Shown here in pieces: positions 3,119-6,158 of a stretch of 64,000 nucleotides of DNA. The position numbers and the translations under genes are program-made. Source of the stretch: an uncultured Verrucomicrobiae bacterium. Its GTDB lineage: Bacteria; Chlamydiota; Chlamydiia; Chlamydiales; Rhabdochlamydiaceae. The stretch is taken from assembly GCA_963731265.1 (NCBI GenBank), contig CAVSUE010000001.1:352001-416000 (forward strand), in the 5' to 3' direction. Positions within the stretch are counted from its first letter, which is position 1. Each line of letters opens with the position of its first letter. The notes under the pieces are model-generated. The model was given only the letters and a program-made list of their open reading frames with translations, was not told the origin of the DNA and did no database searches.

Positions 3119-4587
3119 AAAAGCTTCTCAAAGACATTCCCGTCAAAGCGATCAAAGGATCGAAAGATGTGGAGATCGCGGGCCTGTGCTCCAATTCCAA
3201 GCTCGTGGCTCCGGGGGATTTATTCATCGCAAAAAAAGGGCTGACGCATGATGGCGCGCGCTTTATTCCCGATGCGATCGCAGCCGGCGCTTCGGCCATC
3301 TTAACCGACCTTTACGACCCTTTTTTTTCCGATACCGTCCAAATCATTCACCCCGATGTCTCTTCCGTCGAAGCCGCCATCGCCAAAACCTTTTACGGCC
3401 ATCCCAGCGATAAGCTCTTTCTCGTCGGCATCACTGGCACCAACGGAAAAACAACCACCTCTTATCTCATCCGCCATCTTCTCGAAGCATTCAAAGTGCC
3501 TTGCGGATTGATCGGGACGATCGAATGCATTGTCGGCGAGCATGTGTTTCCGTCGGGATCGACCACACCGGACATTCTACAAAACTACAAACTCTTTCAT
3601 GAAATGATCGCAAAAAAATGCCAAGCTTGCTTGATGGAAGTCTCCTCGCATGCCCTCGATCAAGGCAGGGTGCGCTCCATCGAATTCGACGTGGCGGTGT
3701 TTACCAATCTGACTCAAGATCACCTCGACTATCACAATACGATGGAAGAATACGCCAACGCCAAGGCCAAACTCTTTTCCACTTTGCTTCCCCAAGGAGC
3801 CAAGTCTTTTCCAAAAAAAGCTATTGTCAACGCTGACTCGCCGTATTTTTCCCAGATGATCGCATCCTGCCCCGTACCCCTTTTAAGCTACGCCATCGAA
3901 AAACCTTCAGATCTTAATGCCCGGCATATCCGTTTGTCCGTCGAAGGAACGGAATTTGAAGTGCATTACGGTAATGAAAAACACCGCTTCAAAACTTCTT
4001 TGATTGGCCGTTTTAATGTGTACAATCTGCTCGCCGCCATCGGCGTCGGCCTTTCCCGCGGCTTTCCTCTTAAAAACATCTTGCAAACTTTGAGCACATT
4101 CCAAGCCGTTCCCGGCCGTCTCGAGCGCGTTCCCAATGATAAAGGCCTCAATATCTTCGTCGATTACGCCCATACCGATGATGCGCTTTCCAATGTTCTG
4201 TCGACTTTAAAAGAATTGAAAACAGGGCGTCTGATCACCGTCTTCGGCTGTGGCGGCAACCGCGATGCCAGTAAGCGGCCCAAAATGGGCGCCGTCGTTG
4301 AAGCCCTTTCCGATTTGACCATTGTCACAAGCGACAACCCGCGGCACGAAGATCCCGAGATGATCATCCGCAACATCCTCGCTGGCCTTAAAACGCCCGG
4401 CAATGCGCTCGTCATCGTCGATCGTGAAGAAGCGATCCGCCGCGCCGTCAAGATCGCAAAACCCGACGACATCCTCCTCATCGCCGGCAAAGGCCACGAA
4501 AATTATCAAATCTTGTCCCATCAGACGATCGACTTCAATGATCGGATTGCGGCCCAGGCCGCTTGCCAACACGAGAAATCAACGTAA
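3100..4587 (+). CDS. murE: UDP-N-acetylmuramoyl-tripeptide (mDAP) ligase MurE
   Basis: GITGTNGKTT, EVSSH, TNLTQDHLDYH, DYAHT, DNPR and AGKGHE motifs. Confidence 0.97.
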   Translation: MERVKLKKLLKDIPVKAIKGSKDVEIAGLCSNSKLVAPGDLFIAKKGLTHDGARFIPDAIAAGASAILTDLYDPFFSDTVQIIHPDVSSVEAAIAKTFYGHPSDKLFLVGITGTNGKTTTSYLIRHLLEAFKVPCGLIGTIECIVGEHVFPSGSTTPDILQNYKLFHEMIAKKCQACLMEVSSHALDQGRVRSIEFDVAVFTNLTQDHLDYHNTMEEYANAKAKLFSTLLPQGAKSFPKKAIVNADSPYFSQMIASCPVPLLSYAIEKPSDLNARHIRLSVEGTEFEVHYGNEKHRFKTSLIGRFNVYNLLAAIGVGLSRGFPLKNILQTLSTFQAVPGRLERVPNDKGLNIFVDYAHTDDALSNVLSTLKELKTGRLITVFGCGGNRDASKRPKMGAVVEALSDLTIVTSDNPRHEDPEMIIRNILAGLKTPGNALVIVDREEAIRRAVKIAKPDDILLIAGKGHENYQILSHQTIDFNDRIAAQAACQHEKST

Positions 4588-4760
4588 ACAACTCCTGCCT
4601 CAAGGCAGAAGCTTTATGGTCAGCGATTAGCTGCCACCTGCGTGTGGTTTACGGCGCACGTTGCATTGGGGATACCCAAAGCAAACCTGCAGAGATTCTG
4701 ACTGGAGTTCCAGTCAGCGTGCTGCTGGTTTCCACAAGGACATTTAAATAGGTGTCTTTC
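4566..4760 (-). ncRNA. Predicted TnpB omegaRNA (right-end RNA); guide extends into the murE 3' flank
   Basis: Inferred from position: in TnpB elements the omegaRNA covers the tnpB 3' end and right-end hairpin, and the guide is the flank after the end motif. The 5' boundary is approximate. Confidence 0.4.
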
Positions 4761-5831
4761 ACGGACACCAAAAGAACCACAAACGGAGCAAACTTGACTA
4801 CTGTAAGCGGGATTGACATACATCACAGAAACCCCCAGGCCTCGGCTTTATACTCAATAAACATTTGAAACTGGCGAAATCCCCAACGGTGCAAACGGGT
4901 CCGCATCCTTATTTCCCGCTTTAATTCGTTTTCGGATGTTTGTCAGATCCTCAAGTACAATCACAGAAGCTTTTCTATCGATCGCTTCTTGAACAATCTG
5001 TTTACTCAATTCATGATTGACATGTCTCATGCGTCGGCCTTCTTTGCCAGAGATTTTCTTCAGCAGTTGTTTTGCCGATTGAGAACCATTGGACTGAAGA
5101 GCGCGACGCTTGGCAAGAAATTGATCTCTTTCGTAACGGATCTTGCCTCCACTACAAATCTTTCCGGAACTTACTGCAAAAATATTATTTTCTCCCAAAT
5201 CGACCCCCAAAAAGCCTTCTAGTTCTCGAAGTGGTGGATTAGGAAGATCCAACACAAGGTTGAAATACCATCTTCCTTTTTTACAGATCAGTTCCCCTTC
5301 TTTAGGAATCCCTTGAGAAAAATAGGCTTTTTGAAAAGAATCGAATCTCATACGCACTTTAATTCTTTTCTCCAGAGTATACAAGGAAATGGTCTCTCCT
5401 TTGATGGTATAAGTGCGCTTGTCAAAATGGACACTTTTTCCCTTGCGAAAACAAACCTGGGGGATTTCTTCTTTTGGGAAAACCGATTGAGCGGCATAAG
5501 CTTTGCACACAGAATATATCGCGCTGCAGACCATTTGGGATCCAAGAGGAGATGTCCTACGAATTTTAGCGTACACAAGGTGGTGCAAAGCTACCCGATT
5601 CCAACACCGATTAGCTACAACATCGGGAACAATTTGATTACAAGCGAAAAGGTATGCTTCCTGCAACTGCAAAAGCTGCTTTTCCTGTTCACGATTGGTG
5701 TCCAAACGAATGCTAATAGTGCGTTTCATGGACAAGAATTATTTATTAGATGTATTTTATATTCAATTTTAAAAAGGAGCAGCACTTCCTCCCAGCCCTG
5801 AATGCCTGGGTTTCCGCGCTGTCACAAAACG
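4584..5831 (-). mobile_element. IS200/IS605-family (IS1341-like, tnpB only) element, decayed
   Basis: On the minus strand the target TTCAT (5832-5836) is followed by a left end with GAAA + hairpin CCCAGGCATTCAGGGCTGGG. The right end is AAAG + hairpin CTTCTGCC-TTGA-GGCAGGAG + TTG-TTTAC (ends at 4584). No TSD and no tnpA. Confidence 0.88.
4620..5729 (-). pseudogene. tnpB: TnpB RNA-guided nuclease with two frameshifts near 4910 and 4840
   Basis: RuvC-I GVDLG and RuvC-II IVLEDL in ORF 4854-5735; a shifted segment MRTRLHRWGFRQFQMFIEYKAE; then VNPAYSSQVCSVCG...FKCPCG...HADWNSSQN (Zn finger, RuvC-III) in a third frame. Confidence 0.9.
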
Positions 5832-6158
5832 ATGAAAAAGCTATTTTTTTCCCTGTTCTTTTTTGTATTATGCAATCTAAACTCTGAACAACTTTCTGTA
5901 ATTGGCGACAATATTTATGTCGTTTCCAAATTTCCTGAAGTGGATTATTTCACAGTTTATACTTCTTCCGGGGAATTTCTTTGGGAAATATCTTTCAACT
6001 CGGAAGTCGTCTCTTCCCAAGTCAAAGATGACCTTTTGCTCATCTTTTCCAAAGCACGCAACGGCCTTGCCTATTTCCTCACTTGCCTCGATCCCAGGGA
6101 AGGCAACCTCAATTGGGAAAAGGGGATTAGTGCCCCAAAACCCATCGCTTCGGATTGA
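5832..6158 (+). CDS. Small secreted hypothetical protein (beta-rich, PQQ-repeat-like)
   Basis: Signal-peptide-like start MKKLFFSLFFFVLC at the ATGAA directly next to the IS end; CLDPREGNLNWE motif. Confidence 0.65.
   Translation: MKKLFFSLFFFVLCNLNSEQLSVIGDNIYVVSKFPEVDYFTVYTSSGEFLWEISFNSEVVSSQVKDDLLLIFSKARNGLAYFLTCLDPREGNLNWEKGISAPKPIASD

Follow-up and report, generated by a model that had tools for sequence, protein, structure and literature searches.

We analysed a 64,000-nt stretch of DNA (the window; G000:C1:352001-416000) from the 2.34-Mb genome of an uncultured Rhabdochlamydiaceae bacterium (G000). In this window an insertion sequence (IS), termed IS-B here, lies between murE and a small downstream gene (4584-5831, minus strand, 1,248 bp), and copies of a gene-less repeat of about 113 nt, the mini-element, are found at six other sites. 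IS-B is very probably a non-autonomous, tnpB-only IS200/IS605 element with ends that are read by DNA guides and TTCAT as its target, and the mini-element its PATE-like relative. IS-B itself is an ordinary member of this group and it is the niche that is interesting, namely the junction between the stop codon of one gene and the start codon of the next. For comparison, we used 18 other genomes of the genus (19 with G000) together with further metagenome-assembled genome (MAG) records. Coordinates are window positions unless a contig is named, and IS-B is described in the sense of the minus strand.

The boundaries of IS-B were set by alignment to copies in sister genomes, which fixed them independently: the copies start just after TTCAT, stop at TTGTTTAC and have unrelated flanks. 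At the left end, TTCAT (5836-5832), the transposon-adjacent motif and the reverse complement of the ATGAA start of the downstream gene, is followed by a 17-nt linker, the tetranucleotide GAAA (5814-5811) and an imperfect subterminal hairpin (5810-5791), for which the orthologues have a clean 8-bp stem and a TTTA loop. The right end consists of AAAG (4615-4612), a hairpin with an 8-bp stem and a 4-nt loop (4611-4592), whose stem shows compensatory changes between copies, and the tail TTGT plus TTAC (4591-4584; TTAC at 4587-4584). IS-B was single-copy in G000 (blastn), and elements of its type were present in 7 of the 18 other genomes as well as in further MAG records. TTCAT adjoined the left end, at the point where the flanks diverge, in all 13 related copies that were read (window included), one of which (in G017) has a deletion within the left hairpin. 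Most related copies, like two distant relatives, had GAAA beside TTCAT; in three copies the guide was mutated or deleted. All readable right ends of the relatives were AAAG-hairpin-TTGTTTAC followed by unrelated flank, and the tail was identical in 8/8 readable copies (window included), in further pattern-matched copies and in three distant relatives. The latter, from Chlamydiae, Gammaproteobacteria and Acidithiobacillus MAGs (TnpB identity 52-55%), had this right end with different stems, and two of the three carried TTCAT and then GGAAA-hairpin at the left. IS-B thereby shows the hallmarks of IS200/IS605 insertion (3' of a 4-5-nt motif, no duplication, no terminal inverted repeats), and its subterminal hairpins have a 4-nt guide 5' of each foot. 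All that an original prediction made for this DNA had described of IS-B and of the mini-element was found in the sequence, on direct reading, at the positions given.

In IS608, the left motif TTAC lies 19 nt 5' of the left hairpin and the right motif TCAA 10 nt 3' of the right hairpin, with the guides AAAG (left) and GAAT (right) directly 5' of each hairpin; guide and motif pair through A+16:T-3 and A+17:T-4 (PMC3201880, PMC5934647). The register, which includes G+19:C-1, sets motif position -4 against guide base 2, -3 against base 1 and -1 against base 4 (PMC5934647). Read in this register, the left guide GAAA specifies TCAT by three Watson-Crick pairs and the right guide AAAG specifies TTAC. 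The IS608 code had been invoked in the original prediction as a position-by-position analogy, which is not the true register; the code itself held, accounting for both ends of IS-B and the left end of the mini-element. Indeed, the true register makes the GAAA/TCAT match fully Watson-Crick and therefore stronger than the analogy had it. At the level of sequence, the ends of IS-B are shown to be read by four-base DNA guides just 5' of each subterminal hairpin.

A second line of evidence came from a separate, resident IS605-like element. A PF01797 profile search found two loci in G000, both within this element (one copy each at G000:C1:926433-929798, L001, and C1:314405-317770, L002). The element is about 1.7 kb long, its tnpA and 383-aa tnpB are divergent and its two copies are 94-97% identical. 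Its ends read TTTAT / 18 nt ending AAAA / hairpin ... GAAT / hairpin / AGGT-TCAA, and ends with TTTAT recurred in G002 and G003. The guide AAAA accompanied TTTAT in 4/4 IS605-like copies, and GAAT accompanied TCAA, giving a natural case of covariation. Because IS-B and the IS605-like element differ at guide base 1 (G/A) and at target base -3 (C/T), just as the register would have it, specificity sits in the DNA guide. The original prediction had proposed that a TTCAT-specific TnpA encoded elsewhere mobilises both IS-B and the mini-element. Y1 tnpA genes with related hairpin ends do exist elsewhere in the genome; the TTCAT specificity did not hold up, given the TTTAT/AAAA ends of the resident element, and both copies of the enzyme are lesioned (see below). 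As judged from these ends, the element's own DNA guide reads the target and a 'TTCAT-specific' TnpA is not required.

The body of IS-B is a tnpB pseudogene (4620-5735, minus), as the original prediction had implied. Alignment to an intact 369-aa orthologue from a sister species placed a 293-aa N-terminal frame (5735-4854; Pfam match OrfB_IS605, PF01385) and a 68-aa C-terminal frame (4826-4620; Cas12f1-like TNB, PF07282) in one common reading frame. A +1/-1 indel pair, with one indel within 4904-4917 and the other in a G5 run (within 4826-4840), shifts the frame of about 25 codons between the two pieces, and an in-frame TGA lies among them. The RuvC motif contexts GVDLG, VLEDL and HADWN (D/E/D) can still be read, and sequence matches in the PDB were to TnpB/Cas12f. 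On this reading of the frames the gene counts as a pseudogene, barring assembly errors at both indels, which no reads covered. The 3' region of the element (4584-4813, minus; 230 nt), which overlaps the end of tnpB, was conserved more strongly than the coding sequence, and RNAalifold on eight copies gave 63 pairs, 13 of them with changes on both sides. An Rfam scan of 4300-6100 with E up to 1 returned no match. This structured region is likely an omega-RNA scaffold; its guide would then come from the minus-strand flank 3' of 4584. The combination of a TnpB with RuvC-like nuclease and zinc ribbon and a structured 3' region is thus recognisable in IS-B from sequence, and the product of an intact tnpB would have been an RNA-guided nuclease, for which TTCAT is the expected adjacent motif.

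IS-B sits exactly where murE and its neighbour would otherwise overlap. murE (3100-4587, plus) encodes 495 aa with Mur ligase domains (E 4.8e-57, 1.1e-33 and 5.4e-07) and ends in ACG TAA; the G of the last sense codon is position 4584, and the stop (4585-4587) lies inside the right end of IS-B. The downstream gene (5832-6158, plus) encodes 108 aa with a signal-peptide-like N-terminus and a weak PQQ_2/BamB-like match under the Pfam cut-off. Removing 4584-5831 leaves ACA TGA A, an ATGA overlap of murE with the open reading frame (ORF) at 5832, without any change to the MurE protein; the G014 orthologues of this gene pair show an ATGA overlap too. The right tip of IS-B reads GTAAAC on the gene strand and the insertion therefore replaces ACA-TGA by ACG-TAA, the reverse complement of the right-end tail giving murE its G plus TAA. 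Both flanking ORFs stay intact despite the insertion. The excision outcome and the element-borne TAA had both been foreseen in the original prediction. Contigs from sequencing reads covered the window only in small fragments, and none bridged an excision joint. One 151-nt contig of run X2, which may be the source sample, matches 4570-4720 without differences, and the joint between murE and the IS is therefore present in that run. No public run contained more than 0.14 of the sampled words, and none of those listed was an RNA run. We propose that IS-B would have arrived by single-strand 'peel and paste' transposition 3' of the minus-strand TTCAT at the murE ATGA overlap.

The mini-element was analysed over the whole of G000 and across the genus. 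Within the window, its 15-mer TTCATCCGTCCTCCG gave six matches at up to two mismatches (0.19 expected; 0/100 shuffles reached six); a looser 10-mer gave ten matches at up to one mismatch against 5.5 expected, which is not significant alone. We counted 47 mini-element left ends in G000 (46 when the core motif was extended slightly), and a right end accompanied 40 of the 47; the element also occurred in 11 of the 18 other genomes. It is predicted to fold into three hairpins as single-stranded DNA (ssDNA; z = -6.7 for the copy at 26585-26697). The left flank was TTCAT in 38/46 G000 copies, and the stretch from GCGGAAA through the 8-bp hairpin is common to the mini-element and the IS-B family, in keeping with the shared target and left-end architecture described in the original prediction. 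The mini-element can thus be seen as a PATE-like relative of IS-B that would use the same left guide, hairpin and target, with a right end of its own, TTCAC or TTCAT, that re-creates a TGA stop. This right end also differs from that of the IS605-like element.

Three filled/empty pairs set the boundaries of the mini-element, each reading X-TTCAT-[element]-Y against X-TTCAT-Y, with the insert running from CCGTCC to TTCA(C/T). The first pair is formed by the IS605-like paralogues: a mini-element at L001:1354-1470 (G000:C1:~927786-927902) occupies exactly the ATGAA where tnpA starts, in the space that separates tnpA from the divergent tnpB, and L002 is empty. The other two are window sites 8010 and 9507, both empty, at 88-92% DNA identity, in G003, the closest genome. 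Gap-free alignment of the flanks of the TTCAC-ending copy requires the insert to follow TTCAT, and in both pairs that end in TTCAT the insert has to include the fifth base. The G003 contigs break before three further TTCAC-ending sites that were queried there. Insertion of the mini-element makes no target duplication; like a PATE, it inserts 3' of its motif, and all three empty sites were scarless, as the original prediction would have it. A head-to-tail tandem dimer (G000:C2:65344-65571) joins TTCAC directly to the CCGTCC left end; this joint is the expected circle junction, or else an insertion into the TTCAC of the first copy.

The copies within the window lie on both strands. Those on the plus strand occupy 8015-8126 (target TTCAT 8010-8014, right end TTCAC) and 9512-9624 (target 9507-9511, the start codon of gene 8123-9511(-); right end TTCAT). 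Those on the minus strand occupy 612-724 (target 725-729, right end TTCAT), 18726-18839 (target 18840-18844), 24979-25090 (target 25091-25095) and 26585-26697 (target 26698-26702), the last three ending in TTCAC. The copy at 8015-8126 gives a TGA to gene 8123-9511(-) and a GGAGG Shine-Dalgarno sequence to the gene starting at 8014(-). Gene 8123-9511(-), of 462 aa and with a pyridine-nucleotide-disulfide-oxidoreductase-like N-terminus, is bracketed by two mini-elements, one at its start and one at its TGA stop (8123-8125). At G000:C1:1280451-1280715 and 1281271-1281540, mini-element copies are split just before the last hairpin by an insert of about 145 bp with inverted termini; another small mobile element, unrelated to the mini-elements, seems to be nested there.

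Within the genus, no full-length parent with both mini-element ends came to light. G001 and G005 gave matches to the left end alone, which were rejected as parents: they are incomplete mini-elements with no tnpA or tnpB beside them. A third tnpB family of G000, an IS607-type element of about 2.2 kb with a 208-aa serine recombinase and a 522-aa TnpB, is present in nine copies (G000:C1 43336, 55465, 160983, 450363, 684109, 863150, 1075514, 1170748 and 1474424) that are 96-99% identical, with two left-end variants and ends unrelated to the TTCAT elements. This nine-copy element was likewise discarded as a parent on account of its serine recombinase and unrelated ends.

Neither IS-B nor the mini-element encodes a transposase, and both would need a Y1 TnpA in trans, for which the two defective-looking IS605-like copies are the sole candidates. 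In one copy, the HUH motif has become H-V-Q and one base is lost near the start (N-terminal frameshift), with the Tyr segment kept; in the other, the catalytic-Tyr segment is out of frame and HUH is kept. G002 has an intact 138-aa tnpA. Each active site of the IS608 TnpA is assembled from two monomers (PMC3201880), so a rescue by mixed dimers is conceivable. The lesions of L001 and L002 are complementary and, as pure speculation, a mixed dimer could in principle restore one active site.

Several observations weigh against the guide-read IS200/IS605 reading of IS-B and the mini-element. Both resident TnpA copies are lesioned, so that neither mobility today nor the enzyme responsible for it is proven. 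TnpA was detected in 6/19 genomes of the genus only, and tnpA went undetected in G013 and G012, which are rich in mini-elements (about 80 and 41 matches); these assemblies are 64% and 74% complete, so its absence there is not established. In G004 (45 matches) tnpA was only a fragment. The left hairpin of the window copy of IS-B is degraded and folds weakly (z = -0.86). An exact empty murE allele was not found among 11 sister loci, none of which was close enough, and the murE region is missing from the assembly of G003; the small downstream gene was absent from the murE locus in G002 and G004. Orientation of the mini-element relative to replication, as inferred from GC skew, was 29 vs 17 (p = 0.10), giving no support for a strand bias. 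Lastly, the (T/A)AAT beside the terminal hairpin in all mini-element subfamilies does not fit TCAC or TCAT.

The first of these points is shared with the best-surviving alternative, in which IS-B and the mini-elements are relics of a lost cognate tnpA-tnpB element and the resident IS605-like TnpA never acted on them. In a gammaproteobacterial relative (L092), a tnpA C-terminal remnant lies directly upstream of a tnpB whose product is 55% identical to that of the IS-B family, which makes tnpA-tnpB elements the ancestors of the IS-B lineage. Genomes with the IS carry one copy each, and one site is common to two species, suggesting little recent movement. On the other side, the mini-element has moved recently, as seen from the two sites that are empty in G003 and from the copy inside one of two IS605-like paralogues that are still nearly identical; no other Y1 gene was detectable in G000 by the PF01797 search; and all hairpins involved have an 8-bp stem and a TTWA loop. 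We regard this alternative as possible but unlikely, and retain as the favoured explanation a guide-read IS200/IS605 family mobilised in trans.

It is far less probable that the mini-elements are repetitive extragenic palindromes (REP), or bacterial interspersed mosaic elements (BIME) or REPINs built of them, spread by a domesticated REP-associated tyrosine transposase (RAYT) and sharing with the IS no more than a generic hairpin similarity. The mini-element is high-copy and intergenic, it holds two related perfect palindromes in roughly inverted arrangement, and on the bottom strand its right hairpin and flank resemble the left guide and hairpin of the IS, all of which such a family could account for. 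However, the only two PF01797 genes lie inside a two-copy tnpA+tnpB element with its own ends, unlike the REP/RAYT arrangement of a single-copy Y1 gene between inverted REP units; insertion is site-specific 3' of TTCAT with one fixed orientation to the target; and the left guide and hairpin are common to the IS family. An inverted-repeat miniature element moved by a DDE transposase, with the flanking TTCA(T) as target-site duplication, is the least probable of all: the three empty/filled pairs involve, or could be read as having, TTCAT on both sides and about a quarter of the G000 copies end in TTCAT, but the difference between left TTCAT and right TTCAC is systematic (31/40 full-length G000 copies end in TTCAC, and likewise in other genomes), the G003 site of the TTCAC-ending copy at 8015-8126 has a single TTCAT with gap-free flanks, contrary to such an element, and the fifth base is necessarily part of the insert in both pairs ending in TTCAT.

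The right end of the mini-element may be read by a guide in another place. The original prediction had already remarked that no matching guide stands next to the terminal hairpin; a canonical guide was rejected, as (T/A)AAT is non-pairing and the bases 5' of the central hairpin are unconserved. In the central hairpin, the stem covaries between species and the loop CGAAG is kept. By the IS608 register, GAAG specifies TCAC exactly. To relate loop and end, about 90 copies across the genus were examined for guide/end covariation, comprising the G000 copies and the 48/53 copies from other genomes with both ends readable; the loops GAAC, AAAG and GGAG and the ends TTCAA, TTCAG and TTTCA were left out of the 2x2 table. 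With a GAAG loop, 60 copies ended in C and 9 in T, and with a GAAA loop, 5 ended in T and 0 in C (Fisher p = 1.2e-4; about 0.01 in each genome set alone). Because the copies are related, the counts should be taken as two or more independent events rather than 74. Three of the five GAAA copies come from G000 and two from G013, where the central stem is different. In the GAAG copies ending in T, the T opposite G would be a wobble; one G002 copy, AAAA with TTTAC, fits at one of two positions.

The CGAAG loop closed by C:G (e.g. 8067-8096) resembles the very stable d(GCGAAGC)-type DNA mini-hairpin, and a loop of this kind would fit a structure working at the ssDNA level. The conserved GAAG in the central hairpin loop may be the right guide of the mini-element, a hypothesis for which the covariation above is the basis. 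Flexible spacing between guide and motif is reported by Meers et al. (10.1101/2023.03.14.532601). Placement of a guide in an apical loop was undescribed for IS608-type ends in those parts of the literature that were compared.

We then considered how the family comes to lie at stop/start junctions. Both flanks could be read at eight distinct IS sites, and at five of these the TAA of the IS tip closed an upstream ORF (222-500 aa), so the stop-codon trick noted at murE in the original prediction recurs at independent sites; the left flank could be read at ten distinct sites, eight of which had an ORF of 100 aa or more starting at the ATGAA downstream. One IS site was common to G002 and G013. Among the 40 full-length G000 mini-element copies, 25 had a downstream ATGAA ORF of this kind, 18 had an upstream ORF ending in the TGA of the element, which comes from its GTGAA/ATGAA tip, and 15 had both. 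The baseline was far lower, with 169/7,974 ATGAA sites in G000 (2.1%) being stop/start junctions (binomial p = 2e-15 for the mini-element and 2e-7 for the IS). The claim that the target motif steers the family to start codons consequently failed: TTCAT alone cannot do so, because so few ATGAA sites are junctional. The enrichment needs either survival selection or an added preference. The empty site at 8010 in G003 illustrates the change, an ancestral AAA-TGA-A overlap becoming AAG-TGA plus a separate ATG after insertion. The left edge of the mini-element places GGAGGACGG before the target ATG, and the 16S rRNA ends in CCTCCTTT, its 3' end carrying CCTCC; the left edge of IS-B has no Shine-Dalgarno sequence.

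Most likely, we infer, the concentration at junctions reflects those insertions that a compact genome tolerates. A more ambitious view, which we hold only tentatively, is that the family is adapted to ATGA operon overlaps and near-neutral by design and not just by survivorship, with a loop-displayed GAAG as right guide in the mini-element. Under such adaptation, which seems to us somewhat less probable than not, the termini would supply what both genes need: TAA from the IS, TGA from the mini-element and a Shine-Dalgarno sequence borne by the latter. A literature search confined to one library and a few terms found no paper on stop/start-junction targeting by such elements or on a loop-borne right guide. 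The junction niche looks new; the transposition mechanism is already known.

These elements provide a natural test of the IS200/IS605 DNA-guide rule in a phylum where such elements have been little studied, since a single guide base (G to A) and its partner in the target (C to T) distinguish sister elements of the same genome. They show how a transposon can live in the operons of a compact, intracellular-type genome at low cost, and mean that annotated stops, starts and 5' regions in these genomes depend partly on mobile DNA. The covariation of GAAG/GAAA loops with TTCAC/TTCAT makes a testable candidate for a non-canonical guide position, and the predicted TTCAT adjacent motif offers a starting point for characterising intact TnpB orthologues.

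Four known systems were compared, as far as the consulted sections of the cited papers describe them. REP/BIME repeats and RAYT (PMC2817692, PMC3333891) likewise pair a Y1 HUH enzyme with hairpin repeats that are related to the ends of IS200/IS605 elements; here, in contrast, there is no RAYT-type gene arrangement, and insertion of the mini-element is strict, target-linked and oriented. IS608 of Helicobacter pylori also inserts 3' of a short motif without duplication and has hairpins with 4-nt guides 5' of the foot. The right pair of IS-B, AAAG/TTAC, is the left pair of IS608, and the right pair of the resident IS605-like element, GAAT/TCAA, is the right pair of IS608 (PMC3201880, PMC5934647). 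Unlike IS608, IS-B has no tnpA, uses the pentamer TTCAT with the guide GAAA and carries a tnpB pseudogene, and its right cleavage site lies 8 nt from the hairpin as against 10 in IS608.

A further parallel is found in Geobacillus stearothermophilus, where one TnpA is proposed or shown to move the tnpB/iscB-only families ISGst1-5 and PATEs in trans (10.1101/2023.03.14.532601). There, adjacent motifs are clade-specific and include TTTAT and TTCAT, a transposon-encoded right motif is TTCAC, and the DNA guides covary with the adjacent and right motifs (10.1101/2023.03.14.532601). PATEs, as described in Meers et al., are short, gene-less and multi-copy with IS200/IS605-type ends, like the mini-element, whose TTCAC right end matches the transposon-encoded motif named for ISGst2; unlike them, the mini-element is without the omega-RNA-like 3' region of IS-B and its right guide is not in the canonical place. 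The concentration at ATGA junctions, with an element-borne stop and Shine-Dalgarno sequence, goes unmentioned in the passages of Meers et al. that we compared. Here the host is a chlamydiote and TTCAT goes with a TnpB element, whereas in Geobacillus it goes with IscB; in the remaining features compared, the chlamydial system matches the ISGst/PATE biology of Geobacillus in kind.

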